Shown: in pieces, positions 10,718 to 57,618 of the stretch
Layout: every line of letters starts with the position of its first letter
How positions within the stretch are numbered: position 1 is the stretch's first letter
NCBI GenBank assembly: GCA_051294905.1
Contig: CM119371.1
Location: 40,240,001-40,304,000, forward strand
Direction: 5' to 3'
Length of the DNA stretch: 64,000 nt
DNA from: Botryllus schlosseri
Lineage: Eukaryota
Notes under the pieces: model-generated
What the model was told of the DNA's origin: nothing
The model's database searches: none
What the model saw: the letters and a program-made list of their open reading frames with translations, nothing else
Position numbers and translations under genes: made by a program

Positions 10718-12458
10718 CCATCGCGCGAGCAAATGGTGACTTTTCATATTTCATAGCGCAGTAACACTCAGACATTGTTTTATCTTCGTTAATAAACAAT
10801 GATTGGGAGGGAAACTGATATCCGTGAATTCTACTGGCCTAATTCGTCTTTAGTGAACTTAATATATTTCAAATGACAAGTAAGAACTGTGAGTGTGGTC
10901 TGTGACTGGCAGCCTGTTAAACTAATTTTGCAATTTACATAAACAGGTTTCCAATTGTGGAGGAATTGAAATGTCGTCCACAGAGTTACCATTGGTATAA
11001 TATCTGCTGTGGAGATGGAAGAGTACATCACACCAATGTGACGTCCACCAGCTTCAGATATTGGACAAAATTGCTACCCTGCATGGGACAGGCGATATAT
11101 TACACTGGTACACACATATTTTTGGGCAGAAAAAGTAAGAGTGGGTTTGAGGGGTCTGGAGGGCACTGATTCCGAATATGACCTTACTTTTTTCAAAATG
11201 GTTCTTGTTTTGGAGATAACGCATTGTGCTATTTTGAACAAAATCTCCCATTTTCGCAGTAATGGCTAGATAAAAAAATCGGCTCAGGCGCACTATAAAG
11301 TTTACAAATTCAATCTACTTGTTCTTTTTACATGCAATAGACTCTTTTAAATCAAAATACAGCAACAATGTTATAGTAAGGAGTATTAGAATTTTAAGAC
11401 CAACTGTTTGTAGTTGAGTGTTTTGTGACCAGTGATCCTTTGAAAAGTTTTATTTACGACATGTTAGGATAAATGCCATGCAGTGAGCTCCTTCATAATA
11501 TGAAATTGGAATCTTTCATCAGTACCGGTATTCGAATCGGAAATCGATCAAGGATACCAGATTTAAGCTTCTCGTTTGATAGGGACACTAGGGGTATACC
11601 CACTTTGTTGATTCAGCGGAAAATTATCCATTCACAAGTCAAAAGAAATGAGTATTATAGTTGAGCTTTTTAAGGAAAAATTTTATAGCTTTGTGCTTCT
11701 CTTTATTCTTGGTACAATGACCAAGTGATAAAGGGGAATATGTTCTTCCGGCTCTCAGACGTTCTGCCAAAAAAAATCATTTTGTTGAGCAGTGTTATAT
11801 ATGAAATGGTTGTTAATTTACAGTTCAATCAAATACCGGTATTATTTTAAAAATTGCAATAAATTTAAACTACACCGGTACTTCAGATTATTGTACCTAT
11901 ATGATTACTACTATCAGGGCAGCGTTTTGAAAAGCTCTAAATTCATATGTTGTGTACCATAACTAAATCGGGGACGACGTCAAAATGATGAGCTTCGATG
12001 ATCTCATGATAACTCTAGAGGTGACATTGCAATTCTAACTCAAGTACACATGCGAATGTTTTTATGTAATTGCAATATGGCGTAAAAAATAGTCATTCGC
12101 ATACCGGTAGTAAAATATCGACTGAAAAGCAAATCTGTATCGCGTGCTTTGTCAAATCGAATTTGATCATGAAATCAGGATTGGTTACTGACAAAGCCAA
12201 CGAAAATGTTAAACTGGCAAGGTGAATATGCTCGTTTAGTGCTGAATTTTTTTTCGTGTTACCAGAGGAATTCACAACACGCACTAGTCCATAACGCTTT
12301 ATCTACATTCCCTCCCATGAGGATCTCACATTATCGAATACTAAATTATTGAAGGCATCACATTGAAAATCGCATTAGGTATGAATTCGATTCGATGAAT
12401 CTAGAACACCGCTATTTGTTGTTTCCTACGAAAGCTTTGATTTAATAAAGTGACTCAC

Positions 12459-12766
12459 TTGAATTCGATTTCCCAGACACCTTGCAATGATGCCCAACAG
12501 CTCATCGTCGATACTGCAGGCTTCTAATCCCAAAGAACGAAGGCTTTGACTCCTTGCTGCAAGCGATCCAACGATATGAGCTTCATCGCGACTCAATGAG
12601 ATGCCAGATACACCGATGACGTCAAGATCTTTCATGAGATTGCCGTCGTCTGATTCATAGATCGCTGTATAAAGTTCCACGAGAAGGCGGCTGTTTTTCT
12701 TATTCTCCTCGAGTTGAAGGCGAAGCGATAGACCAAAAACTTGTTGCTTCTTTGTTCCATCCGAGA
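12459..12766 (-). CDS. NLR exon: post-NACHT helical region and first LRR-like repeats
   Basis: Acceptor gttgcgtcacAG (phase 1 matches the NACHT exon). Reads SDGTKKQQVFGLSLRLQLEENKKNSRLLVELYTAIYESDDG...LRSLGLEACSIDDELLGIIARCLGNRIQ (RI-like LRR). Donor caa|GTGAGT, phase 0. Confidence 0.8.
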
Positions 12767-15058
12767 CTGTGACGCAACAAGCAATATCGTGGTGATCGTT
12801 GGCATTGCATATTTACGTAACAATTGGAAGATATGCACTGCTGCGATAACACAGGGTTAGAATGAAGCGATTGAACTCTCGGATCGAGTTCACATGAGTG
12901 TTTCATGAGCAACAATGGCGATGATCAACGATGAGCTATCATTCATTACTGTTACTTTCAACTATAAATTAGTAACCTACGACTAGATGCGCAAAACGTG
13001 CCTGCACAGTTTGATTATTTCTACACTTTTCCTAAACGTATATGGCTGCGGTTCTTGTCCGACAGTTTTTGTGTCTGCGGAGCTATCCGTCTGAACCCGA
13101 AGAATCTAATCCAACTATCCGACTATATCCGAAAAATCCTTATTGAATAATGATATTGCAGAATATCAATTGTACGGCTGAGCTTAAATACAGTTCTACA
13201 GATCACGAATTGTATTTATCGAAAGAACATAGGCAAATGGAACAAAAATTGGAATTTTAATTACAGGAATGTTAACACAAAGAGACAATGCTATTAATTT
13301 GAAGTAAGTGTGCAAATGAAAGTGGGATCTCGGATCAAAAGAAAATGAAAAATGACAGAGATTATTAGGCCATGGCCAGAGATGAGCAGATAGCATCCGG
13401 ACCGGACCGGATATTAGACAATTTTGTGGCAGTCGGATAGGACTCGGATATCATCGCAGATTTTTTCGGATATTGTCGGATAACTGAAACTTTTGATGCG
13501 GATAGTTTCGGATAGTTTTAACCAGAAGTGAGATTTGATGACAGGCCAATAGAAAGAAGTCAAGAAGTCAATAACCAAATAAAGCCAGCTGACACGTTGC
13601 GATATGACTCGTCACAGTCTAGACAATGTTAGTCAAGAGTCCAAGAAAATATATATCAACTATCACCACTATACCATTCTAACCACTCAAGAGTAGACAA
13701 TAGTCTACTATAAGGTCCGCCATGTTATCACATTTATTTGCTAAAACACATCAAGTATAGGCTACCATACTTGCCAGTCTAACGATACATAGTAGCCTAT
13801 TAGAACTAACAAAAGATGGTATGATTAGACATGAGCTCTCCTGACATAGTTATCATCAGTAAGGTATTCTTGCACAGCAGTGTTTCAAGTTCAAAAAATT
13901 GAAGGTATTGTTTCATTATCAGTCGAAGAACTGCATTTGCTTCCCGCCTTGGCATGAAGTTTTCAAAACCCATAGCTGACGAATGTCACAATAAGACATA
14001 CAATCTTGAGAATCATTTAATTTATTGTTGTGGTGGTGTTCTGTATATTAGAGGCAGTCTTCTGTACATTAATATAAATCAAATCCCTCTTTGCATATAC
14101 TTGTTGCATGACTGATTTTCATGCAACCACAATAGTTGCATCGTATGATACCCTTTCAATGAGCAGTATACCGCGTTGCTTGTGCTATGGCACAACATTT
14201 AGCAAACGTGAGTCTTCCGACAGTTCATGATCATAACCGAATATATCCTGATTACGTTCAACAATGTAATAATTTCTTTTCGTGAGTGGTATTCCCAGTG
14301 TGGTCTTGGACTTAGCGTCAGCTTGGCACGTCGAGTTGACAGCTGGTATGGTTGACGTATGGTAAGCCTACGATACAGTAGCCTATATAAGTCCTCATTG
14401 AAATCATTCAAGATGCATGGATTGCATACGCTACCTTACTTAGGTAAACTAATAACATCTAACAAGACTCCCTCGTAGTTACAACGAAACGCAAGCCTGT
14501 TTAACTTTGCTCAGTCACAGCAATTGCAGCAACCTGACAGTGGTCAACTGCTCAGTGCTCACTCTTCCACTATAGAATGTTACTTTCTCTACTTCCACTC
14601 TTCCCTTCCTTCAGCAGTTAAATTTTCTCCAATATGATTGACGTGATCAATCATCCAGAACCACTGAGCCAATCAGAAGCTAGGTAGCGTACATCCGGTT
14701 TCAGCCCGTATAAACAGAACTGATTTGACCACTGTGATTCTATTAGAATTTTTAGCCGAAATCGGTGATCGGGTGAATCATGAAAATATACTCGGGTGTC
14801 ATTACGTTTTGTGCTTTGGAAATTACATCGGCATATTCAGGAGCCTCTTGCCAGACTATTTCTTGGTGATGTATTCAACGACAAATGCATGTAAACGACG
14901 GTTTTCGGGTGTATTTCCGGGTATAATGACGAAAGAACAATTTTAAGAAAACGAATGGATACCTACTACGCAGCCGTTTGACTGAATATTTTGCAGAGAA
15001 ATCGCCAGAAATGTGTCGATGATAACGCTCAGCAGACCATGTCTATCGACAATCCTTG

Positions 15059-29162: not shown

Positions 29163-29677
29163 TTCCCAGTGTACATACTTCGTAGTCATCTTATTTTTTG
29201 CCTGATTGATCGACTGCTTGTGATATTTTCAAGTCCACCTGCATCTTTATGGCATCTCTTTAACTTGAGTGAATGATTGATTTTGACGTGATTTACAGCA
29301 GTTGTTAATTTTACTTGTTGATGCTTTTTATTGTTGAAAATTTGATAATATAAGCTTTTTGCCTCAAAATCAATCTTGTGTCAGTATATTTCTGCGTCGC
29401 CTAACCTGTGGTATAAGGGAATATGCAGGTCCAGGAGCTAGCTATAGCTAGCTAGTGTTCAGAGGGTTGATCAGTGGATAGTCTATGGATATCAGTCTCA
29501 ACCAGACTTTGTCCCTACAGTGGCCAGGAAATGACTTGATTGGATGATAAATGGACGACCACTGGATGACACCAAGATTCGACATTCTCGGTGCGACCGG
29601 ATGACACTAGGATGAATCTGGGCCAAATGACAAGTTATCCGACGGATATCCGTTTGCCGTAATGTGTTTGCTGGGGA

Positions 29678-38806: not shown

Positions 38807-40237
38807 CTTTATAAAGATCATTCCGTGGTTTCGAGAAGACAATGCCTGCCACGAATCGTCGCACGACGGACCATTGCTCTTCATGAAGATGTTCTTCATC
38901 GAAGCGAGAGAATTCGCTGAGCTCCATTTCCGTTACAAAGATCGCTGCCAGATATTCTTGCAGGCTTTGATGGCAGAAGAAGAATGTGAAATCTCCTTCC
39001 ATCAAATGCCGGCTGAGTAGATTGTTCCCCGGAACTTTCGTCATTAAATCTTGGACTTCTTCCGTTGACACTCCAAAGTTTGTCAGGTCAGTCTGTTTGA
39101 ACACTACTCTTCCTTCTTTCATGCCTTGAAATGCTAATGCCTTCAGTTTGTGGACGATCGATAAAATTTGATTCCGATTTCGAATGTTTTCAACGCTTCG
39201 CAGAGCTAATACGATTCTATTGTATAGTTCTGTTACCGTGTTCGGGGGAGGTTCGTTTGGATCCCTTCCCATCACAACTGCTGTTAAAATCAGGAAAACG
39301 GGTACAGAAACTAACTTCAGCAGTCTTGGTGACATGGATTCAATTTTCTGCCAGAGTTCCTCGCCTTTCTCTTTGAGTAAAAACGCAAATAGCTTATGCG
39401 CGTCTTCCGAAGTAAGACCATTCAGTGTAATGATGGTTTCGGGTCGCGCCATCGCCGGTAACTCTGAAACCTTGAATTCGCGTGAAGCAATGTACACTTT
39501 CACGTCACGAAGGATATTGCGGGATAGAATGTTGTACATAATTGTCCAGGAGCTTGCTTTTTCATGCTTTCTCATTTTTCGGACACTTTTATCATCAACT
39601 TCCCACCTTGCCTGATCAAGCCCGTCAAATATTAAAATTGCCTCAGACTGGTGGTTATCTAGCCATTCGAATGCCTGGTCTTCTTCTACTTCGTTTTGAT
39701 ACAGCCCCCCGAAGAGAAATTTGGACGGATTAAGCCTGGTAACCTCTTCCATATCCTTCAATTCAATGTAATGTACCATTTTATGTTTGTAACAGGGCTG
39801 ATCCTTGACATCACCTCCTGCAGTCATGCCGAGAGCTTGTCTTGCTATTCTGCGTGTGAGTGTGGATTTACCGGATCCAGCAGATGCCACTATAGCGGTT
39901 ACACCAACTGTTTCTAACGAGCTTGTTTTTTCTCTTTGCCATATGGATGTAAATAAGTCACCAAAGCCGATCATTTTCGCTCCAATTCCCTCTTGGCGGA
40001 AAAAGCCAACTTCCTTTGTCAGCTGATTACGAACACCTAAATTCTGAGCTCGTTGAATGCTGATGTTGTCATAGCGACCTTTGTAATAATGTTGAACGTC
40101 GATCTCTCGCATTTGCGGGTAAACTTCAAAGTCGGGTTGATTGAGGTTTTCAAGTCTGAAGTCGTCAAGGATGTCAATAGCCGTCAATTTCTTGGTATTA
40201 TCGTTGCAAATTTGAATTAATTTTCTGGATCTGGTGC
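38807..40237 (-). CDS. NACHT-domain exon of an NLR-like protein (477 codons)
   Basis: Walker A ASAGSGKST, Walker B ILIFDGLDQ, sensor-1-like YIASR, VSVPVFL, winged-helix FFFCHQSLQEYLAA, and EQWSVVRRFVAG. Acceptor ttttccattccAG at 40238; donor aaag|GTCAGA at 38806. 1431 nt, phase 1-1. Confidence 0.92.
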
Positions 40238-43074
40238 CTGGAATGGAAAATATTGAGTCGTTTCATGTCTACAAATAGCTACAGTTTGCCATTGCTGATA
40301 TGGTAAGTCAGCTGCACATTGATTCTAAAAGGTGACCAGCATTGAGGTTCTCGCTCGTGTGAACAAAAACTACTATAGAAGGTCTGCTGCGAACACAAAT
40401 ATATGACGATACGATGGTAATTGAAACTAATCTAGTTTTTGCTTTCCTATCTGAAACCGTGGTTGCAGAACATGTTGACTCCTAATTTGGCTGACGACTC
40501 AGGACGAATTCTACCCACTATTGTACAAAACAGTGCTTTTCAACCTGTGGAATGGTATGCACTTGTGAGAAAAAAAAATTGAGTGCGGATGACGAAGGTG
40601 GTGCGGAAGGTGCGAATTAAACTTTCGCTGAATGCGGATGAAACTCATAAATAATTGGTACATTTTCTGACGAGGAATAATTCATATAAACCTAATAGGA
40701 AATTCAAGTGTAGTGGTTACCTAACTTTTGTAGTTGTGACCAACGTCCCCGCTAATTTCCCACTAGTCTGCGCACACTCACCAACTTACTGATCGGTCCT
40801 TTGGACAACAGTGCGTAACGACTAACAAAAAAGATCAGCCCCTTTTCGCAGCTTAGATTTTCTGAACGCAGAGACCGTGTCAGCACTGCGCGATTGCGCA
40901 CGTGCGCAGCTTAGAGGGAAGATTGGTTGCGACGCAATTGTAAGAACTTTTTGACTCTTCACACGTGACATAACTAATCATAGCTTCGACAAAAGCTCTG
41001 ACTCCCACGAGCCGTACTGAATTAATATTTGCGCACTGTAATTATTACGTAATCAAAAGCTTGGTTCGAAAGCGGGTATCGTGACAGTCATACAGTGTAT
41101 CAGCATGACTGAGCCTGTGACCGTCTGTTAGTAATCTATACTGTACTGTGACACGCTGAAGATATGACGTCCAATTGCTTTCGTTCGCTGAACAATCATC
41201 ATATTCTCGTAATAACAGTTCGATTAGCGCGAGGCATGAGGATAGTAGTAAATGCCAACATTATACAGACTAACGTATGCAAGTTACTTTAACTCAAATT
41301 CTTACCCCTTTAACGGTTATTAAAGTATGGTTCGCAAATGGAAACCTATAATTATGGGTTTCCACGGTGCCAGAGCAATCTGTTAATATCTATGCCATAT
41401 TTGTTGGATTTATTGCAGAAAGTCCTGCGGATCGTTTTACATATCCAAGGCCACTGTGTTGGGCACTATAGCCAATGAGTGAGACACGCAGGATATGTGG
41501 CTTCATGAGAATGTGCCATCTTTTGTATTACACAAATTGGTTTGAATTCATGTTAAGATTTGTCCGACTGGTTTCTCTGTAAAACATCGTTAAATACCGT
41601 TGGGATGAAGTATACTGTAGGAGTGTGCAAGAAGCGAGTTCGGGTCTATGCGACACATTCATTTCGGGGCCAACCCCTTCTTCGTCAGGGCACAGGAAAA
41701 GGTAAAGTTTAGGCCAAAAGACCGCTGATAAAATACGGGGCCAAACAGATCAGCAGCGACGAAAAAAATGTCGACCAAAAATGACTCTCGCGGGTTGGCC
41801 AAAACTTTTCATATGGATATGCTCCGTAATCGAAATGGTCGGCAGTCGTCACCGAATAGGCCCGTTCTTGCAATCTGAGTACTAGCACAAATGCGACGGG
41901 CATAGGAAATTAATTCACTCCAATTTGAAATTGTTGGCGTCAGACATGTTTCGCAGAGCTGCGCTGGGTACAATTGTGTTTTGCGCGTTCTGTAAATCAT
42001 ACATGTTCGTAAATTCATAGCATACTACTATAATAACAAAAATGCATTAATTTCCTTGCGTGTGGCTCGGGTCTTGAGATGCCACCAAAACTTGGGATTT
42101 CGTCGTGGCCTGAAAAGCTGATTCAAGGTTATTGAACTGTTATGAAATTTCAAGTTCGATTGAGCTAAAGAGTCGAACACGCAGTATCGTGACTATCTTT
42201 GCTCTTCTCATTCACTGGCTAAACAGAAAATAGGAAATTAAAAGAAAAAAAAAACAGAACACACGTTGTAGCAACGTAAGGTAGCGAGCTCTAACGCACA
42301 TACTCTCCTTGGTAATTTTGGGGACAAGCCACCAGGCAGAACCTCGACACAAACATGTGGGTTTCTCACCCTTCGACAAACTGGACCTTCCCGGGGACCT
42401 TTGTGTCATCTCTTGACAACGATTACTGCCAGTAAGCATTTTACTCTCGGTAAAAATACTCTGTATTTTGGATTGGAGTGTTTTATGGTTATTATATAAA
42501 CCTGGCCATCCAAGTACTAGTATAAACGTTCTTGTACGAAATAGACCGGCTTATTTTGCCGAGAAGAATGTTAGGTAATTATAGTTGAAATCAAAACAAG
42601 TAAAATGAATTATATTTTTAATGAGACACTTGATGGCCTGTAGCAGACTATTTGTTGCACATCTGAACAGAATATTGTTGAGTGTCTTCTTCTTTTTGTA
42701 TAACAATTTTAGGTTGGTTGTGCGAATGTAATTTATTTTGCAAAAAAAAAAATGCGAAAGGTGAAATGTTGAAAAGCACTGGTCTAAAACATTTAGTAAG
42801 CTCCATATTTTTGATTTTATCTCAGTAAAAGCCATTAAATATATTTTGACACTTATGACAACTAACATGATTGTTTTAAAGGGCGACCGAAGAGTTTGAC
42901 GATAATAAAAATCTAAATCTACGGTTTATTCTTTAGTAACACGCTTATCACGGCAATGCGAGTAGCAGTAGGCCTACGCAATGGCTGTATCGGTTAAATC
43001 AGTTCCTCAAAACTGAAAGAACAACAACTTAGGAACGGTTAATATGGTTAACTGACAACGTTTCTTTGACTATA

Positions 43075-44037
43075 GGGGGAGGTGTGGTACCGATGGATCA
43101 CTGGGACCGAAAATACTTGAGAAATTCTCCATGATAATTCCATGATTACACTCCGTGATTTTGTCTACAAGCACATGCTGACAGAATCTTTCCTCACATG
43201 CAAAAATATTCAACCTGCATGAGTTATGGGGTCTGTGACGAATGATTTACGTTTTAGGGGGTGTAAAGTAAATTTGGATCGACATTTGCATTTTTCTATA
43301 TCACCTTTCAGACTAACCAACCCGCCATAATTTTTGATGTGAGGAATAGGGCTTGTATCAATGTATATAATGGCACATATTTTTTAAATCAATACCATCC
43401 TCGAGTGGACTATTTTCAAGTCAATTACAATATTTATGGGGTGGGGGACCTATGGTACCATAGCCGAATCAAGTAAAATAGATGGACCGACTAATCACTT
43501 AACAACAGAAACTCGCCTATTATAGGCTGTAAATCATAGTTACCTGCGGTGTTTTATCGCTATTACGAGGTATTTGAAAGTCAAAATGTCGATTTTCGGG
43601 TAATATGTATGTGGCATTAATGTTGTAAGTTTAGGCGTAAATCAAAACATGATTTTATGCCAACATTTGAGTTCATATAATCTATTTTATTCTTGAAGGT
43701 CGCAAAGAAACATTCTTCATTGGCTTGCTGTAGCTTGGCTTATAGTACACAACAAAACAAGTTACCAAATTTGAGTTTTTGAGCGTGTGTCTCATAGCAT
43801 AGGTCCCATGGTCATGTGCCTTTGGACCCACCGGGTGGGGACCGATGACACGTTCGAGCAACAAATTTTAAACGTTTATAAATATTTTTTGAAAAGGCGG
43901 ATATTCATGTAAATGTCCGCGATAGGTAGAGCTTGTATCGAAGTGTTGAGCCAGCAAAAGATCTGCTATTCTTGGCTGAAGATTTAAGGGCCAGAGATCA
44001 TTTTGTAATTTTTGATCCATCGGTACCACATCTCCCC
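43075..44037 (-). mobile_element. TA-flanked MITE (GGGGAGATGTGGTACCGATGG family), diverged copy
   Basis: Same TIRs and internal sequence as 44588-45551, in opposite orientation. Confidence 0.85.
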
Positions 44038-44587
44038 TACTGCTTACTTATTACAGTTTTCGGTGGTATAAGCCTTTGTTTAATCGACAGTGCCAGAAGA
44101 CTAACTTACGGTCGGTAATGTGGACTGCTATGTTTGTAATTGGCAATGCCACTACCAAGAGAGTCCTTTTCCCGCAGATACTCGAGAAAACAGTGTGGAT
44201 TCAAAAGCTGCTTTACACACATAAGTAGCAATGTATTCTCCTCGGTCCATGCAATGCAACATGCAATCCAAGAACACAAGGTGAACGATGTCGGGTAGAA
44301 CGAATTCGCGAGTGAGGATGAATGTCGATGCGACAGCAACTTTGTTTTTGTATTGATACAAACTTTTTGTCGAAATCGGCTATTAGATTTGTCCGATTAT
44401 TTGGTGTCTTGACTTGACTAGAATCATTTTCTTTTTCAAATGCGTGAAATGACTCAACTCGAGTCAATTTTTGTACGGAATCGACTTGTACTCGAGTCTT
44501 TGTGCATGACTCGAATCAAGTCACATGGCTCGAGAGAGGACGGCCAAAACAGACATTCCATTGTAACCTCAAAGAATAGTAAAGTTA

Positions 44588-45551
44588 GGGGAGATGTGGT
44601 ACCGATGGATCTAAAATTGGAAAATGATCGCTGGCCCCAAAATGTTCAGCCGAAAATAGCAGATCTTTTGCTGGCTCAGCACTTTGATACGAGCTCTACC
44701 TATCGCGCGCATATACATGAATATCGGTATTTAAAAAAAATATTTATGGATGTTTAAAATTTGTTGCTCGAACGTGTCATCGGTCCCCACCCGGTGGGTC
44801 CAATGGCACACGACCCGGGGACCTATGACACATATACCCTAAAAAACTCAGATGTAACAACTTTTCTTGCTCAGTATTATAATCTAAGCTACAGCAAGCC
44901 AAAGAAGAATTTTCGGTCGCAACCGTCAAATAATAGATTAAATATTGACTCAAATGTTGTCATAAAATCACGTTTCGATTTAGGCTCGGACTTATAAATT
45001 TAAGGGTACATATATATTGCCCGAAAATCGACAGTGTGACTTTCAAAGACCTCGTTATAGCGATAAAACATCATATGCAATTATTACATAAAGATTTTCT
45101 GTACGTAGTCATGTTTCATTTGTTTCATGATTAGTATGCTTGTTTATTTTGCTTGATTTGGCTATTGTATCATCGGTCCCCACCCTACTAATTTTGTACA
45201 TGAATCGAAAAAAAATCCACTCAAGGAAAGTACTGAAAAAAATAATAGGTTCCATTATATAGCCTGATACAAGCCCTAGACTTTGCAATAAAAATGATTG
45301 CTGGTTCGTTCGTGTTGAAGGTTACAAAGAAAAATGTATATGTCGATCTAAATTTACTTTACACCCCCCAAAACAAAAAACATCTGTGAGAGACCCCATA
45401 GTTCGCGCACGTCGATTTTTTTTTTGTATGTGAGGAAAGATGTTGCTAGCATGCAATTGTAGACAAGTTCACGGAGTGTAATCATGGAATTATCATAGAG
45501 AATTTTCAAAGTATTTTCGGTCCCAGTGATCCATCGGTACCACATCTCCCC
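44588..45551 (+). mobile_element. TA-flanked MITE (Tc1/mariner-type TSD), young copy
   Basis: TA|ggggagatgtggtaccgatggatc ... gatccatcggtaccacatctcccc|TA; near-identical to 56657-57618. Confidence 0.9.
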
Positions 45552-46782
45552 TACCACAATATTGGTATTTGGTGTATCAGCCTGATACATGGAAAATACG
45601 GCCAGAAACTGTTAAAACTGGGAAAACTTACTATATCCTTGTACCCAATATTGCTGGGCCAAACGCCTGTCATGCTGAGCACCTCTCCAGCCTACGAAAT
45701 TGTGGAATACGCTGTATATTGACACTAGAAACTTTGTCTCTAAATTCATACAGTGCCCATTTAGCAAATTATACTTTCAATCTTTCATGTCAGAATTCAT
45801 TTTCAAAATTCATTAAAATTCAAGTACTGATAGTTTGATTGATTAAATGCTGATATTTTGATGTGCTAAGCCGAATATTAATAAAGTTTTAATTGAAGGC
45901 TAACGATATATTTTAGCCATCTCTGGCGATATATTTCATGTACTCCAACACCTGAATGCAATTTTAATATAGTTGAGTCCATTGAATAGGAATTTAATGT
46001 GTTGTCAGAAATGTGCATCGATTTTTTTCAATACTGGCAATATTTTCCTCACCTATACTTACGTACTCTTACATGTGAATCAAATTTTAGTAATCCACTG
46101 CAATGATATTTTCACTCGAATATATTTTTAGTCCTCATTTCAATGTTTGCTGGCCATCTTGCTACTTCTAAGTCTGTAAATTCTAATAATTTATTTGTGG
46201 TACTGTGTCAGGCAATTAACTTCAATGTTTCGTACCGAATATTGCTATGTATAGCACTTAAAAATTATTTTCCCCAGCCTAGGGGAAGATTGAGAACTGC
46301 GGTATAAAATTCAACAACATAGAAATTCCATAAGATCAAGTGCTTGTAGTTCAATCTATTGAATAGGCATTTTTAGTGCGCTCTGCCCAATATGTATCAA
46401 CTGTTTCATTGGAGGTTGCATTTTTGTGATAGTCATTAGATATTTGTGTACTTTCAACTCTTGCGCACGAATATAATTACAATTACTCCCCCCAGTGACA
46501 TTATCCACTTAATTTTGTGTTTTCATGCTGAATTTTATGAAACCCCTTTATTGTTTCTATAATGCAAGGTAATAAGTCGTGGTTGATATCGTGTTTGTGT
46601 TCGCAGCCATGCTAGGGGGTGCCTAAGTAGGTGGGGCCAGGAAAGCTAGGGTGTCGGGTGGTTCTTTTAACCGTCGGATCTACGTTCTGTAGCATTGTAG
46701 ATAAAACAAATTTTGTACGTTTTATTTTGCATGTCCGATTTATGTGAAAAACGCGTTAAAACGCGTCGACACAAAAACAAGA

Positions 46783-46890
46783 CTTGAAACTGTGGAACAT
46801 TTTCTCATTCATTGCCCAAAATATTCCTGCGAACGGGAGTACCGGGAAAGCGCAGCTCGGGAACACGGCGTGCCTTTTCATAGATAACAT
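46783..46890 (+). mobile_element. Decayed LINE 3'-end fragment
   Basis: Translates LETVEHFLIHCPKYSCERE, resembling the C-terminal Zn-knuckle of non-LTR ORF2 proteins. Confidence 0.45.
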
Positions 46891-49555
46891 ACTGACCCAT
46901 CCCGCAGCGATTTCCTCGGCAATATAATTTTTTTCTGTTGTCCGGAAGAGAGATTTATTAGAATGATGCGTTTATCACTAATTGACCTGGTGCACAAGGC
47001 CATTGCTGCCTGCCGAGCACCATAATTCTATACCAACAGCAACAAAAATGTCGAAAGATTTTTTGTATTGCATACCGACAACCGAAATACGCTTTTTTAT
47101 GCTATATATCGAAAGATATCAAGTGGAGAAGTTATGCTTTGCTGACGGATCTGCAAAGATATATTTTGTCAGTGAACGGGCTGATTGCATCTTAGTACAT
47201 CGGTCGAATGTTGTATACATCAACCTCAAAATTCGTGATGCTTGATATGTATTAGGCCTACTATGCTATGATTTATGGAAATACCACTCAGATTATAGCT
47301 AGTAAGATAATTGTCTCTCCTCTCGTAACAACAATTATATTACAACAGAGTAATATGTTAATAGGTAGCTCCCAACCTTCCTTTTCGCCTTTCTCGTGCT
47401 GAAATGAGTCAAGTATTGAGTCTCTCTTCTATCAATGAAATTGACTGAACGTTTTAATATTTTCGCACTGCAATTGACCCATTCGTTATAATACTGCCAA
47501 AAACTTGACGATACACGGAGAAACAATTAATTGTTACGACTGCATATTTACCATAAGGATTATTTGGCGATGATCTTGATGACCGCTTAAGAATCTTGTT
47601 GGTCTTTCGTGGGATTTTAGTCAACCCGCCCTTGTTTCCCCTTTTTCTGTTACCTGTTACAAAGTAATTCGTTTCTAAAACCTTATATCTCACGTGGAAA
47701 ATCAAAACCGCGTTCAACATGAATATCTACATAAGGAATTTTAATTACAATAATATTTGAAGATTATACACCAATCACTTAAGTTCATCCGTAAGCTGAA
47801 ATAAAATAAATTTCATTTATTATAGGTATTTATAATATTCACAGTTACGGCTCGTCCTTAGGCCAACTTGGGCATTGCCAACCTACAATTCTGTGCTATA
47901 AAAATATTAACACGAATTTATTATTTATAAACGAAGCGAAAATGCAACAAAAATCAAGTGATTTTCTATGTTCTCGCTTTCAAACTTTCAAACGCATCCA
48001 AATTCCTTGAAAAGGTAGCGCTCAAAAAAAGTCTACTTATTTATTTTCCCAATGTTACCCACAATAAATAAACATATACGGTTCTTTTTCTTCATTCATC
48101 TCACTCGGCGAAATCGGGAAATCTCCAGATTGCCCTGAACTCTGACATAACAATGGTCTATGTGTGTGACACTGAGCGGGTCCGCCTTTCTTCTTAGGCT
48201 GTACAAAATATATCGAATTATACTCATATCAGCAGTTTCTAATTCAAGTCCGGCTTGATGATTGTTAATATAATATTAATATTAAAATAATCAAATTCGT
48301 ACTGACGAAGCACCACCGCCTCTTTTTGCGTTGAACTAAAATCGCTCTTCCACACGCTATTAAAACTCTTCGTTGCGATTCAATATTTCGGCGATAGCAC
48401 TATTGTAATGTTGGCGCACCCGCTACACCAGTGTTTCTCAACCTTTTTGGCTTCGCGGAGCCCTTTTGGACCATCACGGACCCTCGCGGACCCCCTCAAG
48501 TTTTAGTTCAAATTTAGCTCAATTATAGTGCGAGAGTCATCTGTCTTGCGCAAATATGAACTCATTGAACTGTAGGCTTGTTATAGACAGCGACAAAATG
48601 ACTTTTCTTGATAACAACATCATGCGATTTATTTATAAATTGTATAGACTTTATTATTTCAAAGCTAACTTTGCAGCTGTATTTCTTGAAGTAGGCCTAC
48701 GTGGTACGTAGCAAAAATCCCTTTCCACACACAAAGATAGATAGAGGTCAATGTAATAATAACACGTAACGATTCCGAAGACACTTTTGGTGTGATCGCA
48801 ACATTTGTGGCCCTATAATGAAGACACATATTTTTAATATAAGACCTTGATAGCTTCCACACCCTATTATCAGTGGTTCTCAACCTTTTTGTCTTCGCGG
48901 ACCCCTTTCGGACCGTCATGGACCCCGCGGACCCCCACGAAATTTTCTGTCAAATTTAGCTCAATAATCGTGTAATCGTCATATGTCTTATGAAAGTGAT
49001 AACTGTAGGTTTGGTGATATACAGCAACTAAATGACTGTTCTTGAAAATTATATCATACTATTTATAGAAAGTGGGTTCACTTCTATTATGTCAAAGCGA
49101 ATTCTGCAACTGCATTCCTTGAAATACGTGGTCGTGTCTTGAAAATCCGTGCCTTCGATTTGGATTGGATATGAACGAGTGGAAAATCCATTTCCATTAA
49201 TATGGGTGGTGGCGAATGTAATGATAACGCGTAACGCTTCCGACGACACATTTGCGTATGATCGCAACAAATATGGCACCAAAATGGACAACTATTTTTA
49301 TAATGAACATACAACGCCCAGCCTGGTTATTCTATCTAGAAGCTTATCTTGAAGTTATTATGGGAAATTGGTTGTGTATATCACAGGAGAAAATGGATTT
49401 TTGTAAACATTTCGAAGTCACCGTGATTGACCTTACTCATCAAACTTTTTTTCCACAATCCCAAACAAAACATCTCTAAACAGCAAAATTTTTGTATCAG
49501 TAGGCTATTGGCAATTTAAGAATTAAAATGAGTCTGCGCAGTAGGATATCTTATC

Positions 49556-51377
49556 TAGGGATGGCGTGAACGTGAGGTTCACGTTCGCGTTCTGTGTGTG
49601 AGCCTCGGAAATTTAGAGGTTTGCGTTCACAACAGAACCTTGGTAGATTCTGCACTGTGAACCTTTTTCATGTATTATAATTTTCCCTTCATTATATCAT
49701 CTTTGGTTCCAATTTTTCGCATTTCAACTGCCGGCCACTCTATGCATGGCGCTGGTAGCATAAAAAATCCTACAGGGTTGGTGCGATTACATGCAAAATA
49801 AGGTCAGTGACATGCAAAATAAGGTCAGTCGCGACATGCAAAATAAGGTCAGTCCGCGCATAAATCCGAATCTATACTTCAATTACTAATCCAACTTTTT
49901 TCTTATGAAAAATAAATTCAAAATATCTTTCCTATATAGTAATTTCACGATTGACATTCCCCATATATATCCTAAATCTGAAGATGTTTCAACAAAATGT
50001 AATCATACGATCATTACAATTACGAGAGGTGAGTCGCATGTAGAATATAAAGAGTCCGCGTATAAATCCAAATGTTTACTTCAAATCCTACTGTTTTCTT
50101 ATGCCACTGACCTTATTCTGCAATCTGCATGTCGCGACTGACCCTATTTCGCATGCCACTGACCTTATTTTGCATGAGACTGACCTTATTTTGCTTGTCG
50201 CGACTAACCTTATTTTGCATGCGGCTGACCTTATTTTGCATGTCGCGACTGACCTTATTTTGCATGTGACTGACCTTATTTTGCATGTGACTGACCTTAT
50301 TTTGCATGTGACTGACCTTATTTTGCATGTCGCGACTGACCGTATTTTGCATGTGACTGACCTTATTTTGCATGTCGCGACTGACCTTATTTTGCATGTG
50401 ACTGACCTTATTTTGCATGTCACTGACCTTATTTTGCATGTGACTGACCTTATTTTGCATGTGACTGACCTTATTCTGCATGTCGCGACTGACCTTATTT
50501 TGCATGTCACTGACCTTATTTTGCATGTCGCGACTGACCTTATTTTGTATGTTTTTGACCTTATTTTGCATGTCATCGCACCAACCCTCCTCAAAAAATC
50601 AACACTAAGACTTAGCGAGCATGCACCTTGACAATCTCAAAAATGATACCCGCTTTGTTACAAAAGTTTGCTCGAAAAATCCAGCTTTCCGTATGTGAAT
50701 ATTTAGTGACTATCTGCTGTGAGCTTGACCAGCAATCACACAACATCACGAGCGAAATACACTACATGTAGTCATCGAATGATGCTTATTCAACCAATCA
50801 AGAAGATTGATATCGTTTTCTGATGTAAAAAATCTAACAGGCGTCAATCTTGACTTCACATGTTTACTGTATCATTAAAACCAAATCAGTGCGATTGAGG
50901 TGTTGGATACTGCTGTATAACTTGTTAATGGGGTAATATGGGTAGCAAGTATAGAAACCCGTATTACACTTTGCTCAATATCAATGCAGCAATACTCAAC
51001 TCAGGCGCCAAATACAATGTCAGATCTGGCCTATACCGTTAAGGCGTAAGCTTATATTTCCCCAAAATCCTCGTCGAAATTCTTGGCAAAGTGACGGAAG
51101 ATATTGATTTTATGGGAATATTATATAATTTGATGGCTCCACTTGATACATTTGGTGACCGTTAATTAGTCAGTATGTAGCCTACTCCTGCATTGTGGCA
51201 TAATGTGGTCCGAGTTGTCGCTAAGTGTTGTTCACAATAATATATCAACTCACTGAAATGCATGGTTGGAATTAGCATTATGACGTCACCAGGTTCACGT
51301 TCGCGTTCACACAGAACCTTTCAAAAAGGTTCGCGTTCACACGAACCTGAACCTTTCAGAGGTTCACACCATCCCTA
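49556..51377. mobile_element. hAT-type MITE (TAGGGATGG termini)
   Basis: tagggatggcgtgaac / gttcacaccatcccta; perfect TSD atcttatc. A partial copy lies at ~58160-58272. Confidence 0.88.
49774..50588. mobile_element. Foldback-like element with 21/24-bp subterminal minisatellite
   Basis: agggttggtgcga...catgcaaaataaggtca (3 units, left) is mirrored by about 22 units of actgaccttattttgcatgtg / ...gtcgcg (50101-50575) and tcgcaccaaccct. Confidence 0.8.
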
Positions 51378-52473
51378 ATCTTATCTCGGACTGCCATTCT
51401 GTTGATGTGAGCTCTGGAGTTTTACCAGTAATGAAGCGAAACTGCCTCGTGATTGTCCGAATTTAAAAGAATACAAATTAGGTTGTCAACTATTTTGAAT
51501 CTTCGCAGACCCCCTGAAAATGCTTCGTGGACCCCCAGGGGTCCGCGGACCCCCGGTTGAGAACCGCTGCGGCCTATTTAAAGTCCACTTGTATGAATAT
51601 ATGCGGTCTTACGTTTATACATACGGTCTGCTATCGGGGCCACAAAGTATAATTTTAATGAACATATCACGTCAAGCCTAGTCATTTTTATCTAGCATCT
51701 CATCTTGGAAGTTATTCTGGAATAGCGGTTATGTATATCACTGGATAAAATGGCTTTCGTGGCGAGGTTTCAATCCCTTCATTGGGAAAAATTAGGAAAA
51801 ATACTTCAGGAGCTGTTATTTCAGACAACTCGACTAATTTGATGACACTGACTACGAATTCACCCTGATTGATCTTACCATCTCCATATTTTTAATTTTT
51901 TCACACACCGCAACAAAACGTCTCAAAAACAATATGTTTGTATCAGTAGGTTATTAGCAATTCGGCAATGAAAATGAATTTGCACGGTAGGATATTTCAT
52001 ATCAGACGATTATTCTGATGATGTGAGTAATGAGGTTTTAGCAGTTGGGGAGAAAAACTGCCTCTTGCTTTCCCTAATTTAAAAAAAATTACAAGTTAGG
52101 TTAACAATCATTTCGCAAATTGAGAGGTCTCGCAGACCCCATGAAAAGTCTTCGCGGACCCCCGGTTGAGAACCACTGCGCTACACATTTAAGCGCATAC
52201 TCAAGTATCAGTCAAAGGGTACTTGAATGAAAAGCAGGTACTTTCTCTCAAAGTCCGGAATAGTTCATCCGGACTACTCCAATGGGTTTCATTGCGTATA
52301 TCTGATATATCAACATGTTGATAACCCAGAACACTCATAAAATTATCATGACCAACTGGCCTTGAAATATTTTATAACACATTTTTCTTCTCATTGAAAT
52401 TAAGTGCCTCAAAGTAGACCATTCTCCTTAATTGGGACACCGTATAAAATGAAGAACAAAACATTGCACTCAC

Positions 52474-52611
52474 CTTGAATCGAAGGACTTGCTTCTCCTT
52501 CAGCACTGGTAATGTTGTAGACGACATTGATCTGATTTCCGCCCACGACGGTAACAGGGCTATTTTCGAAATTTTGATTGATATTTTCACCTTCAGCCAA
52601 AGTTGCAGATC
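52474..52611 (-). CDS. NLR gene exon (GSATLAEGENINQNFENSPVTVVGGNQINVVYNITSAEGEASPSIQ), symmetric phase 1-1
   Basis: Acceptor gtgtgtcttAG|ga, donor caag|GTGAGT. 138 nt, open frame, joins in frame to the NACHT exon (G+GC = Gly). Confidence 0.75.
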
Positions 52612-52826
52612 CTAAGACACACGTGATTACTGTACTGCGTGCCAGGTTCCATACATAGTCTTATCATAAAATAATATGGATTCTATTATGTTCTGCATAA
52701 TATTCATGGAAAGAGCGAAATGGATTGTATTTAAATAGGCCTAACTTAACCAGTATTTTATATGGATAATGGTATTTTGAATTTTAAATATTCTGCGCTC
52801 CAACACAACGGTCGGGCATTACTTAC

Positions 52827-52902
52827 CGCTTGTTCCCGGTAATAATGATGTAGGCATGTCGTCAGCGACACCAGAATGGTGATCTCGACCCCCTTCTGCC
52901 AT
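52827..52902 (-). CDS. NLR gene, first coding exon (MAEGGRDHHSGVADDMPTSLLPGTS), ends phase 1
   Basis: ATG at 52902, preceded by acceptor tgtgttttcAG (exon starts 52946). Strong donor agcg|GTAAGT at 52826. 76 nt = 25 codons + 1, phase-compatible with the next exon. Confidence 0.75.
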
Positions 52903-53165
52903 TGTATTGATCACGTCGTACTAGTTAGCTAGCGTATACGACAATACTGAAAACACATATATTAATTAGATTCATCTTTTCTGAACAACAGGACGAGGCT
53001 ATCTGTCCTTAGCACTTAACCATGGTAGATCTGATAAATAAATTTGAGCGATATGACGTGACAACGCAGTCACATGTCCACAAATATGTATTACCCTATA
53101 TTATTTAGAAACGATGCGTTGAATAACGAATGGTATGAATTATACACAATGCGATCAGTTTGTAA

Positions 53166-54079
53166 CAGTGTTGGGATCAAGTCACTACCTTCGAGTCACG
53201 AGTCATTTCGAGTCATTGCACATTTTGACTCGAGTCAAGTCAAGTCAATCGGTTTTCAAAAGGTGACTCGAGTCAAGTCAAGTCACTCGATTTTTGGAGG
53301 TGACTCGAGTCAAGTCGAGTCAAGTCAAGTCAAGTCACGAGTCAAGTCACAATTCCAGTCAAGTTGCCTTATCGAAGTATTATAGGCATGATAACGTCAT
53401 TGCATTTTGCTAGCTGACTGAAATACAGATTGAGTAGTCATTGCTTTTGAACCGATGAATGAATATAGAGTTAAATATACACGCAAGAAGGCGCTGTATT
53501 TCTCATATATACGTATAACTGCTAAATCCCAGTTTAATAAATACAAATTGATAAAATGCAATACATTACGCATTTACAAATCGATATGATGCAATTTGAA
53601 CCTGCGCAAATGGTTGAGGACTATATTAACTATATTCGAATTCAGTTTCAATAAAACAAGAGGTTTGGTTATGGTAAAACAGAGAGCAGAAATGACTTTA
53701 CTATACTAGTTTACGACAACGTAAGCTGTAAGCTTCGATCACTTCGTTTGCGTTCAATTTATTTGTGAGAGAACAATGGAGACTCAGTAAAACGCACGAT
53801 CATTAAATGATCGGTCGCTCTCACCGGTTACACCAGCGTTACGCGAACAACCTGACCATATGCAAGATGCAGGGATTTTGATCGACGCCGATTACTTGAT
53901 GACTTGAAATTGACTCGGAAATTTTGCCCCGAGTCACTAGTCAATCCATATTTCTGATAGGCCGAGTCAAGTCAAGTCAAGTCATTTTAGCAAAGTGACT
54001 CGAGTCAAGTCAAGTCATACGAAAACGGTGACTCGAGTCTGACTCGAGTCAAGTCATGACTCGAGTCATCCCAACACTG
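53166..54079. mobile_element. hAT MITE, CAGTGTTGGGA family (full-length, 914 bp)
   Basis: TIRs cagtgttgggat / atcccaacactg; perfect TSD gtttgtaa. Confidence 0.9.
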
Positions 54080-54497
54080 GTTTGTAATCTATATAGGTAT
54101 CTTCAATTAAAATTAAAATTCAATTCGCTTCTAATTCAGCTGCCCACAAGTTAAAACCTTGATAAATATTAGTTCTGCAATTTATAGATCCATACTACGA
54201 AGTCAGTCAACAAATGGTACGCTTGCCTTGGTCACCGAGCGATATGTTTTGGTATATGGTTTGTTTGTTTCCGTTGATTTCGGAAGGTTACGTTGAAGTG
54301 GGCGGGTTGAGGGTGTTACACATTATCTGTGTGGCAAATCCAAAGTTTGCAGTGGAGAATGTTTAGTGATTCGGAATCCGTAATATGTGAACAGCGAAGT
54401 TAAACCTGCGAATATATGGTATGAAAACATCACAAAGCATGTGAATACTAGACCAAGCATTATCCGGCTGTGCAGGCGGTGCACCTACCGTCTAGTC

Positions 54498-55847
54498 CAG
54501 TGGTTCCCAACCTTTTTCGACTCATCGCCCCCTTTTCAAATTCAACAGCGATCATCGCCCCCCAAATATTGGGAACCGAAAAATGGGCATACAGACTGAA
54601 ATCACCGGCGAGTTGACTAAGAAAAAATGTCAACTTTTCGGCTCGACCTCGAAATTACACTTTTGTGTTGACTAACAATAAAGGTGATTTCTCCGAAAGT
54701 CCAAAAGGACCGTAACAACATTTCGTCAGCCCCCCCCAATACGTTGGTCTTGCCCCCACCCCCCCCACATAGGACGATAAAGCAAACTCCTGCACCCCTC
54801 AGACCAAACTCCCCCGATACCTCTTTACTGCTACTTCTCAGCACAAATTGTTGGCCTCTTTAGTTAGTCGGCTTAATTCGCGCAATGCGTGAAAGCTTTC
54901 CATCTTTCATGATTGAATGGGTCAATATGATCAGGAATTGCATATATAGTGCTGTCAATTTTTCATCCTCTCTCTGCTCATGCATACAGATTTACCGGTA
55001 ACGCTGAGTTGTGCTGAGTGTCTTGGAAAATGTAGGGCCCGTAAATAATAATTTAACATCTTCGGGCGGACCCGTGGGTATAATGACTTCGTTACGTAAT
55101 GGCATTTCGTGGCCAGTCTGCTATGTCAAAAGATATTCGAATCGCCCATACGTATACTAAACTAAAAGACGCACACGATTTCAAATTGGTATTTCCACAC
55201 AGGCAATTAATTTTTCTCTGCGAGATGACATTTGTTTTGTGGGGTTCTGATTGCCAGGACAAGAACATTTGGCGCCAGCCATTTAGGTGCCTATGGACAA
55301 TTAAATATATATGTATATCGTATATATATCGAAGTCGGTCAGAATAAAGGCAGTCCTTTCCGCCAAGGTTTTCTCGTTCTGGCACAATTCTCGGAGTCGC
55401 ATGTTACATGACCTGAAACTTCATATGTCTTGGTGCTACATGGTGTGATAATGGCTGACGCCGAGATGCTCATTTCTATAACTCATGCGTATTATTTCTT
55501 GGAGGAAGGGTATCCAATTAGCAATAAAAATGGCACCACGAAAGGGCGCGCAGCGCGAAAATTTTTTGAAAAAGTGTAATAAATTTATTAAATAATACTC
55601 TATAATTAATGTTAATTCACGAAAAAAATTGCGGGATTCCTTGAAGCTCGGACCCCCCATCCCAATTGGGGGTTTGAGTGCGGCAGTTACTGTCATGGAC
55701 GCCAATATAGCTATTTTAACGCGCCATCGCCCTCCTATCGCCTCCTTCCTCCGTTTTCACCCCCTATCGCCCCCTTCGCTATTTTCGCCCCCCTGGACCG
55801 ACAAATCGCCCCCTGGGGGGCGATATCGCCCACGTTGGGAGCCACTG
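54498..55847. mobile_element. Charlie-like hAT MITE
   Basis: cagtggttcccaac / gttgggagccactg; flanks gtctagtc / ttctagta; atcgcccc repeats. Internal similarity to ~36100-36470. Confidence 0.75.
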
Positions 55848-56350
55848 TTCTAGTATTTGGGAATAGGGAAACATTCAGTGATAAAATCAAGCCATCATAC
55901 GCGTTGGTAAGTAGTTTCTTTTGAATAAAATCGGATGCTTCGCAGTATTTGGAATGCTCAATCTGTATGTACACACATTTCTCAACTCACCAGACTGTAT
56001 TAGCGCGTTTCAGATAACAAGACTCTCGCAATATCATTAGAAGTTGCATTTGTCATGTAACACGACTGATGTTCGACAATCGGGCTGTGTATGCAGTGCA
56101 GTGTAGGTAATGTACTATCAGGAGAATGACGTAATTCTTATTGGAACTTATTGCTAGACTCCATATCGTTCGTATGTGTATCGGATCACTATGGGATACG
56201 GGATATTGAATCTACAGATCATTCAGCAACCGTGGTCACCCCTACCACGTATAAAAGTGGAAATCATATCATTAGGCTCGCCGACGTTTGAACAGGCTTG
56301 GACTGAACAGTACATTTAACAACATTGTAATTACGAGTTGAACTGTACAT

Positions 56351-56651
56351 TAGATGTGCTCAAAAATGATTTGGCTCGATTCCAAATTTTTGTTTCAAGG
56401 CAATAACACCGCTTCCAGTGTATGGAATTGAGTCAAATTTGGTGAATATCGTTTCTATAGACAACTGAACAATTTCCTGGGGCGAACAAAAAAAATTGAA
56501 ATCTTTTATATTATTTTTTATTCTTTTATATTCCTGTATCAACTGGTTGGAATTGAACCAAATTTGGTGTGCAGGCTTCAATTAGGTAACCTAACAATTT
56601 TGTCAAGTAGCCAGCAAAATTTGAGAAAAAAGTCATTGTTGAACACCCCTA
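56351..56651. mobile_element. Short TAGG-type MITE
   Basis: tagatgtgctcaaaaatga / tcattgttgaacaccccta; TSD ctgtacat, whose right copy is split by the next MITE. Confidence 0.7.
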
Positions 56652-56656
56652 CTGTA

Positions 56657-57618
56657 GGGGAGATGTGTACCGATGGATCACTGGGACCGAAAATACTTTG
56701 AAAATTCTCTATGATAATTCCATGATTACACTCCGTGAACTTGTCTACAATTGCATGCTAGCAACATCTTTCCTCACATACAAAAAAAAATCGACGTGCG
56801 CGAACTATGGGGTTTCTCACAGATGTTTTTTGTTTTGGGGGGTGTAAAGTAAATTTAGATCGACATATACATTTTTCTTTGTAACCTTCAACACGAACGA
56901 ACCAGCAATCATTTTTATTGCAAAGTCTAGGGCTTGTATCAGGCTATATAATGGAACCTATTATTTTTTTCAGTACTTTCCTTGAGTGGATTTTTTTTCG
57001 ATTCATGTACAAAATTAGTAGGGTGGGGACCGATGATACAATAGCCAAATCAAGCAAAATAAACAAGCATACTAATCATGAAACAAATGAAACATGACTA
57101 CGTACAGAAAATCTTTATGTAATAATTGCATATGATGTTTTATCGCTATAACGAGGTCTTTGAAAGTCACACTGTCGATTTTCGGGCAATATATATGTAC
57201 CCTCAAATTTATAAGTCCGAGCCTAAATCGAAACGTGATTTTATGACAACATTTGAGTCAATATTTAATCTATTATTTGACGGTTGCGACCGAAAATTCT
57301 TCTTTGGCTTGCTGTAGCTTAGATTATAATACTGAGCAAGAAAAGTTGTTACATCTGAGTTTTTTAGGGTATATGTGTCATAGGTCCCCGGGTCGTGTTC
57401 CATTGGACCCACCGGGTGGGGACCGATGACACGTTCGAGCAACAAATTTTAAACATCCATAAATATTTTTTTTAAATACCGATATTCATGTATATGCGCG
57501 CGATAGGTAGAGCTTGTATCAAAGTGTTGAACCAGCAAAAGATCTGCTGTTTTCGGCTGAACATTTTGGGGCCAGCGATCATTTTCCAATTTTTGATCCA
57601 TCGGTACCACATCTCCCC
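56657..57618 (-). mobile_element. TA-flanked MITE, near-identical inverted copy of 44588-45551
   Basis: Inserted into ctgTA|cat with TA duplicated; sequence is the reverse complement of 44588-45551 with few differences. Confidence 0.9.

Follow-up and report, generated by a model that had tools for sequence, protein, structure and literature searches.

What serves as the signalling end of an animal NLR when the leader ahead of its NACHT exon is only about 71 residues long? The question is raised by a gene on the minus strand of a 64,000-nt stretch of the Botryllus schlosseri genome (hereafter, the window), for which an initial annotation proposed that a short segment encoded on its own exon acts as an amyloid signalling motif in the place of a death domain. 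According to the accessible text of a 2025 methods paper (PMC12261475), signalling amyloids associated with NLRs are known from fungi, bacteria and archaea. In animals, amyloid-templated signalling of the NLR type is known only through RHIM proteins and one in silico RHIM-NACHT case from amphioxus. As far as the accessible text of Kajava et al. (2014, PMC4262963) goes, amphioxus has many RHIM proteins, in which the RHIM is found at the positions usual for CARD-like domains; among these proteins, BF82280 shows in silico an NLR-like architecture of RHIM, NACHT and repeats, and tunicates appear to be without RHIMs. Since this RHIM-NACHT protein is already in print in that source, the concept of an amyloid-motif NLR is not new for animals.

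Gene model at the window locus

The 5′ end of the gene was modelled as three coding exons, all on the minus strand. Exon 1 (52827..52902) opens with an ATG in the context acaATGG, spans 25 codons plus one base, encodes an acidic Ser/Pro leader, MAEGGRDHHSGVADDMPTSLLPGTS, and ends at a GTAAGT donor. A 215-nt intron (intron 1; 52612..52826), which among paralogues is alignable at ~70% identity, separates it from the 138-nt exon 2 (52474..52611; hereafter, the motif exon), in which the motif is followed by a tail of Ser, Ala, Glu, Gly and Pro. The motif exon is preceded by a polypyrimidine/AG acceptor (tgtgtcttAG, followed by the exonic GATCTGCAACT), and its 3′ end, ATTCAAG, is followed by a consensus donor, GTGAGTgc. 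It opens with two codon bases and closes with one and is thus of phase 1-1; its translation is (G)SATLAEGENINQNFENSPVTVVGGNQINVVYNITSAEGEASPSIQ(G). A symmetric phase 1-1 exon of this length and position was what the initial annotation had claimed, and it was recovered with AG/GT boundaries and with a peptide identical letter for letter to the one quoted. The conserved core of the motif (52508..52600) reads LAEGENINQNFENSPVTVVGGNQINVVYNIT and holds two look-alike half-sites of the form G-[E/D]-[N/Q]-[V/I]-N at a spacing of 17 residues.

Intron 2 (40238..52473) is 12.2 kb long and contains dispersed repeats and, at 50136-50575, a tandem array of about 20 copies of a 21-nt unit, ACTGACCTTATTTTGCATGTC, with a 3-copy relative at 49789-49854. 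The NACHT exon (38807..40237; 1431 nt, 477 codons, phase 1-1) lies between an acceptor in which ttttccattccAG precedes GC and a donor in which AAAG is followed by GTCAGA. It encodes a pre-NACHT region of ~115 aa, the NACHT domain and a winged helix; Pfam returned NACHT at 1.1e-15 (58.4 bits against a cut-off of 26.7) and NOD2_WH at 2.4e-5, above its cut-off. The translation also contains the Walker A sequence GSGKST, and the exon thus has the NACHT NTPase with Walker A by which an NLR is defined. The reading frame is unbroken across both predicted junctions (exon 1 to exon 2, and 52474 to 40237). Counting 25 + 1 + 45 residues, the leader ahead of the NACHT exon is 71 residues long, as had been estimated, with the motif exon providing residues 27-71.

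An open frame at 12426..12812 on the same strand, 26 kb downstream of the NACHT exon and beyond two retroelement insertions, is a candidate for the next coding exon. It may encode a post-NACHT helical/LRR-cap region, being similar by eye to the post-HD2 region of Styela NLRs, and has no Pfam match; its assignment to the motif-NACHT gene is tentative. In the presumed introns downstream of the NACHT exon, we observed an intact-looking 882-aa reverse-transcriptase ORF (32551-35199, minus strand; RVT_1 3.5e-30, zf-RVT), a second, broken reverse transcriptase (6485-7870, minus strand) and a 734-aa open frame without a Pfam match (29663-31867, plus strand).

The motif exon is one of a conserved family

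A search of the genome (495.5 Mb, 219 contigs) with the exon peptide gave 158 candidates, 150 of which were scored, and thus at least 150 motif-exon matches: 67 at E≤1e-3 (hereafter, strong) and 83 weak. AG...GT boundaries of phase 1-1 are common to 28 of the 30 best loci, where the exon is 123-150 nt long, every length being a multiple of three; the other two loci (L019, L028) have no donor under the pattern used. We aligned 26 copies from these 30 loci (alignment A1), leaving out L019 and L028 for want of a donor, and L010 and L011 because they are identical to L009. The consensus of the 26 copies is SATLAEGENVNQKFxKSSVNVVAGDQINVKxVYNITSAEGEASPxxQ, with L4, G7, E8 and N9 invariant in 26/26, and indels among the fetched motif exons are of whole codons. 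More divergent motif exons of 99-120 nt, also of phase 1-1 (for example, IATLAEADNVSQNFENTTVNVVAGDQTNITIN and VLAKGDHVTQHFENATVNVVAGDQYNTVIN), keep the core VNVVAGDQ; over these variants the deep core reads LAxGxxVxQxFxNxxVNVVAGDQ.

The start exon is part of the same unit. Of the 30 loci, 24 have an exon-1 region that blastn detected; in 18 of these it is a clean ATG-to-donor exon, and intron 1 measures 162-223 nt. At one locus (L013; C1:11762237-11765377, minus strand), a single NACHT exon is preceded by two full 5′ modules, each of exon 1 and a motif exon, with 1.15 kb between them; the second encodes FATLADGENIYQNFINSEVKVVAGDEIHGNKVINKYYMNAESPANPADQ. The arrangement may reflect a partial duplication or first exons that are used alternatively. 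Paired motif matches were also seen at several further loci. The suggestion that the motif exon could be shuffled or skipped in frame agrees with its phase 1-1 boundaries, with in-frame length variants of 99-150 nt and with such duplicated 5′ modules; because phase 1 is shared by all three exons of the model, skipping the motif exon would preserve the frame.

The way in which these modules are copied bears on what is being conserved. The 5′ module might be kept for its promoter, its start codon and a tolerated disordered leader, copied at gene duplication, with a peptide that has no signalling role. Homology among paralogues does span the whole ~660-bp unit, intron 1 and flanks included, at ~70% identity, the modules are duplicated whole and in tandem, donors are damaged in some copies, and the window gene has no RNA depth (see below), all of which would suit a passenger leader. 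The substitution pattern argues otherwise: the median dN/dS (pairwise Nei-Gojobori, 298-322 pairs, dS ~0.6) is 0.39 for the whole exon, 0.32 for the core and 0.64 for the linker tail, which indicates that the motif peptide itself is under purifying selection, a core value of ~0.3 meaning constraint while being silent on what is constrained. The invariance of L4, G7, E8 and N9, the strictly in-frame indels and the retention of VNVVAGDQ in divergent short variants that sit on a different NACHT subfamily also speak against a passenger, and we consider this explanation improbable. Conservation of the motif among paralogues, which the initial annotation had set as a test, is therefore borne out both by the boundaries common to 28 of 30 copies and by the core dN/dS of 0.32.

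Motif exons lie upstream of NACHT exons

The set of NACHT exons was assembled from three genome scans, each of which scored 86-94 of ~220 candidates, together with three exons from fetched loci, so that the counts of motif-NACHT pairs given here are lower bounds. The first scan gave at least 98 NACHT-exon matches genome-wide, and the combined set holds 141 scored NACHT exons. Within 25 kb downstream and on the same strand, a NACHT exon was found for 44 of the 67 strong and 38 of the 83 weak motif exons; as controls, a NACHT exon lay upstream on the same strand of 1 of the 67 strong motif exons and on the opposite strand in 0 of 67. Seen from the other side, a motif exon precedes 75 of the 141 scored NACHT exons. 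The distance between motif and NACHT has a median of 8.9 kb and a minimum of ~0.2 kb, at least 82 motif exons lying at 0.2-25 kb. Short motif variants of the C3 type (C3:6.03, 6.33, 7.17 and 7.22 Mb) pair with a different NACHT subfamily. Downstream neighbours were assigned for 86 of the 150 motif exons (82 NACHT, 4 NHL propeller), and the other 64 include clusters at C1:23.4-24.8 Mb, C12:3.1 Mb and C12:17.07 Mb. The motif exon and its 25-codon start exon thus form the 5′ module that is usual in a large NACHT (NLR) family specific to this lineage.

The motif module is found in the position of a death fold

The initial annotation had also stated that no helical domain of CARD, PYD or death-domain size precedes the NACHT exon. 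This agrees with the AlphaFold2 model of the motif peptide, which has no helix, and with the 71-aa leader, which has no Pfam match and is shorter than the ~80-90 aa of a six-helix death-fold bundle. An additional death-fold exon between 52474 and 40237 was likewise not encountered, either in intron 2 or in paralogues with short introns. Among 124 minus-strand frames of at least 30 aa in the 12.2-kb intron 2, no Death, CARD, PYD, DED, TIR or other domain was found at E≤0.01; the sole matches were of low complexity and fell on the 21-nt tandem array, which is open in several frames and therefore gives spurious coiled-coil-like Pfam matches. In the three short-intron paralogues fetched, the motif exon is predicted to join the NACHT exon directly and in frame in all three. 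The intron measures ~428 nt in L051 (on C9, with a NACHT 75% identical to that of the window), where the join reads ...ADQ, S, IKFRKLIQICNDNTKKLTAID; ~160 nt in L052 (C1:8.93 Mb); and ~80 nt in L053 (C14). Introns of only ~80-430 nt leave no room for a death fold between motif and NACHT.

Among annotated long proteins, the NACHT exon is closest to five NLRs of the ascidian Styela clava (34-38% identity), by which best matches the animal would probably be a tunicate. Two of these NLRs (P0022 and P0023; LOC120326636), whose NACHT region is 34-35% identical (E 1e-72 to 1e-78), have the homologous NACHT/HD2/LRR body and share with the Botryllus gene the pre-NACHT region containing ...EP.FEVYPQ.... 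At their N-terminus they carry a Death domain (PF00531, cut-off 22.6 bits; 23.9 bits in P0022, above it, and 22.5 bits in P0023, just below), whereas the Botryllus gene has the 71-aa beta-motif leader. Because the Styela Death domain precedes the same pre-NACHT region, the motif module sits in the position of the effector domain. Similar-length homologues of the NACHT exon comprised 11 Logan genomic ORFs, which start inside the NACHT exon, and one Styela protein, none of which reveals the upstream splicing.

In a further Styela protein, P0024 (LOC120326500), residues 1-75 have no Death or other Pfam domain and are rich in Q, N, V, I and H (…TVVNVHETNISHSEIGQIS…IIADQINHVHTDQFVQHIHVG…). Its ...ADQINHV... 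is like the motif by eye; this likeness was not supported, with an hhalign probability of 0.1 against A1 and no Pfam match at E≤10. Ascidian NLRs may thus have, in the N-terminus of P0024, another short motif of independent origin.

A Death-domain partner for the motif exons was also considered and rejected: a by-eye comparison gave no Death match within 25 kb of any strong motif exon left unpaired, and a Death-domain match lies within 30 kb upstream of only 1 of the 141 NACHT exons. Separately, Death-like open frames of ~100 aa form 32 pairs genome-wide, the two members being inverted and separated by less than 20 kb (~10 kb being common), often with identical scores (for example, C4:20656892(+)/20667428(-) and C5:25440527(-)/25450416(+)); this looks like a repeated element with a Death-like ORF in inverted terminal copies.

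RNA reads at the locus

Four bulk RNA runs (X5, X7, X8 and X9; 6-13% of each) were mapped onto positions 38500-58000 of the window. Depth on exon 1, exon 2 and the NACHT exon was about zero in all four, and no joint was found at the predicted junctions. Between 98 and 100% of the reads mapped to this 19.5-kb stretch ran on into unlike sequence and are thus repeat-derived. Four X7 reads covered 52501-52522 with one mismatch and then diverged; they appear to derive from the motif exon of a paralogue. In a search of a sequencing-run index, no RNA run was listed with the NACHT exon.

This lack of RNA support in the four runs, the long, repeat-filled intron 2 and the two retroelements in the next intron would fit a window locus at which the gene model is wrong or the copy is decaying, with an extra exon in intron 2 or upstream of exon 1, or with a motif no longer spliced to NACHT. 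The three exons are, on the other side, intact and phase-compatible, intron 2 is without a domain frame, paralogues with introns of 80-430 nt join motif and NACHT directly, and homology to paralogues ends ~70 nt upstream of the exon 1 ATG. We therefore regard a wrong model or a decaying copy as very improbable. That the motif exon is real, forms an N-terminal module, replaces a death fold and does so across the family is, taken together, highly probable.

Character and predicted structure of the peptide

The core, LAxGENVNxxFxxSxVNVVAGDQINV..VYNIT, is flanked by Ser/Glu/Pro linkers. Over the 26 copies it contains 21.5% Asn, 18.1% Val, 7.1% Gly, 6.7% Ile, 5.2% Gln and 0.7% Pro, compared with 4.8% Asn and 7.4% Val in the NACHT exon. 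In the tail of the same copies, Pro makes up 8.5%, and Ser, Glu, Thr, Ala, Gly and Pro together 80%. The description of the peptide as a short N/Q/G and beta-branched segment between disordered linkers is accordingly accurate, the core being rich in N, V, G and Q and nearly free of Pro. Its two best-conserved stretches look alike: G-E-N-V-N in columns 7-11 and G-[D/N]-Q-[I/T]-N in columns 24-29, 17 residues apart. With an alignment, the AlphaFold2 monomer has a pLDDT of 53 and a pTM of 0.15, showing two short strands, no helix and no stable fold; a complex prediction for four copies of the 45-aa exon peptide, made without an alignment, scored 0.02, which weighs on neither side.

The motif is short, lies at the extreme N-terminus of an NLR and has disordered flanks, as is expected of an amyloid signalling motif. 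By analogy, its features equal those described for such motifs, and they are also compatible with a strand-forming docking peptide. The latter would be a linear or beta-augmentation motif that docks on a globular partner with no templated amyloid; the partner would be an adaptor, or else the NACHT/LRR of the receptor itself, which the peptide would plug in an autoinhibitory manner. A peptide that is short, unfolded alone, strand-prone in the AlphaFold2 model and conserved under purifying selection is what docking would call for; however, ~30 contiguous conserved residues with two repeated half-sites are long for a docking peptide, and the extreme Asn/Val content without proline is more typical of stacking motifs.

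Comparison with known amyloid signalling motifs

In the accessible part of the preprint by Dyrka et al., RHIM, PP and BASS3 have a central G-phi-Q-phi-G in common. The corresponding columns 24-29 of the Botryllus motif contain, in the 26 copies, G in 23, D in 15 or N in 11, Q in 23, I in 17 or T in 5, and N in 22. Since the first phi is Asp or Asn and the last Gly is Asn, the motif departs from this signature of RHIM, PP and BASS3. A Pfam search of the 26 copies at E≤10, an insensitive test in that HMMER filters drop most weak matches, found no RHIM, PP (Ses_B) or HET-s family. The caveat that the core is not a canonical RHIM thus proved well placed: G-[D/N]-Q-[I/T]-N stands where G-phi-Q-phi-G would be expected, no copy matches the RHIM profile, and the motif was rejected as a RHIM on both grounds.

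The likeness to RHIM proteins lies in architecture. As in amphioxus BF82280, so far as the accessible text describes it, a short non-globular motif with disordered flanks is found at the position of a CARD/death-type six-helix domain in an animal innate-immune protein, and the order is motif, NACHT, repeats, the repeats of the Botryllus gene depending on the tentative exon at 12426-12812. The core differs, being (I/V)Q(I/V)G in RHIM and G-[D/N]-Q-[I/T]-N in Botryllus; BF82280 is, in the same text, a single protein, whereas at least 82 Botryllus NLR loci have the motif as their default N-terminus. By that text tunicates appear to be without RHIMs, whereas the annotated NACHT relatives nearest to the Botryllus gene are ascidian. 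Like the fungal motifs NWD2/HET-S (HRAM), PP and sigma and the bacterial BASS motifs, as presented in the accessible literature, it is a lone short segment at the extreme N-terminus of a NACHT/NB-ARC receptor, has a high content of N, Q, G and hydrophobic residues, and has split into subfamilies. It has no sequence similarity to them. In that literature, moreover, the same motif recurs on a neighbouring effector (HeLo, HELL, Bell, lipase and others), whereas none was found for the Botryllus motif.

Within the literature in our view, which left subscription-only papers and preprint supplements outside, there was no description of this motif or of a tunicate NLR with an amyloid motif. What appears to be new is the motif family itself, together with its scale and the lineage in which it occurs, and the motif appears to be a non-RHIM variant.

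Searches for related proteins and effectors

To our knowledge, adjacency of motif and effector genes is not to be expected in an animal genome. Neither the exon sequence nor the 26-copy profile had a match in the PDB; a word-indexed search with the peptide, covering longer proteins only, gave no match; and the best score in the ESM Atlas was 0.81, below a useful level. Against 1.84 billion representative proteins, the 26-copy profile gave 18 matches at E≤1e-3. Twelve of these are fragmentary ORFs (40-124 aa) on Logan/ENA contigs, which measure 0.9-2.7 kb in the 10 cases looked up; the fragments read include translated intron flanks and are therefore genomic copies. The other six, repeat-rich proteins of 591-4171 aa, were judged spurious as relatives, the four that were read resembling bacterial surface-repeat proteins. 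Among the matches of this profile search, none was a spliced or annotated carrier of the motif, and none linked the motif to NACHT in a spliced product. Every motif copy inspected is an internal exon of the N-terminal type.

The proposal of a partner carrying the same motif was not supported by these data: neither the assigned neighbours (82 NACHT and 4 NHL among 150 motif exons) nor the protein profile search included a kinase, MLKL-like, caspase, gasdermin or other effector. This is a further point for a docking peptide, as a heterotypic partner fits the failure to find a second protein class with the motif better than a homotypic one does; set against that, no candidate partner domain was identified. 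On balance, docking without templated amyloid seems to us somewhat unlikely.

The four NHL neighbours form a tandem series at C8:3.86-4.02 Mb (L031-L034), with units of 37-56 kb, each of which has the 5′ module and, 3.5-7.6 kb downstream on the same strand, a gene for a six-bladed NHL propeller; an LTR retroelement with RT, RNase H and integrase is inserted in one of the units. The genome has at least 56 NHL exons of this C8-type family, and the 5′ module is upstream of only four. At C8, the first NHL exon has its own in-frame ATG, a possible start, and no RING or B-box was found between motif exon and NHL exons in 56 frames from two C8 loci, so that a motif-NHL fusion protein is not established. 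The association of motif and NHL may be incidental.

A proposed mechanism

Our best explanation overall, put forward tentatively as a possibility, is a selected 5′ module that supplies an N-terminus of ~71 aa and acts by amyloid-like assembly. The amyloid-like mechanism considered alone, which is drawn by analogy, is possible, if less likely than not. The core of ~30 residues, rich in N, V, G and Q and proline-free, with two half-sites between disordered linkers, would be unfolded in the resting monomer. Oligomerisation of NACHT would then crowd the N-termini, which could pass into a stacked beta structure, either amyloid-like or beta-solenoid-like. Such a structure might in turn recruit motif-bearing proteins, be they NLR paralogues or a putative partner. 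The model is patterned on RHIM, HET-s/NWD2 and BASS signalling and implies no sequence membership in those families.

Significance for NLR signalling in tunicates

A wider reading, which we regard as unlikely on present evidence, is that a chordate (tunicate) lineage swapped the death-fold effector of most NLRs for a hitherto undescribed non-RHIM, amyloid-type motif on a shuffleable phase 1-1 exon, whose subfamilies could serve as signalling 'addresses'. If true, this would be the first large animal NLR family to signal by prion-like templating, and it would parallel the NLR-amyloid systems of fungi and bacteria, including those of fungal allorecognition. It would also bear on whether prion-like NLR signalling is a general solution across kingdoms, and on how NLRs signal in a lineage that is reported to be without RHIMs and, at these loci, is without death folds. 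At least 80 NLR loci with a conserved 30-residue Asn/Val/Gly/Gln motif as their sole N-terminal module make a candidate that is cheaply testable, as the peptides can be synthesised. Should the motif be a plain docking peptide, it would still define the output arm of a large immune-receptor expansion.
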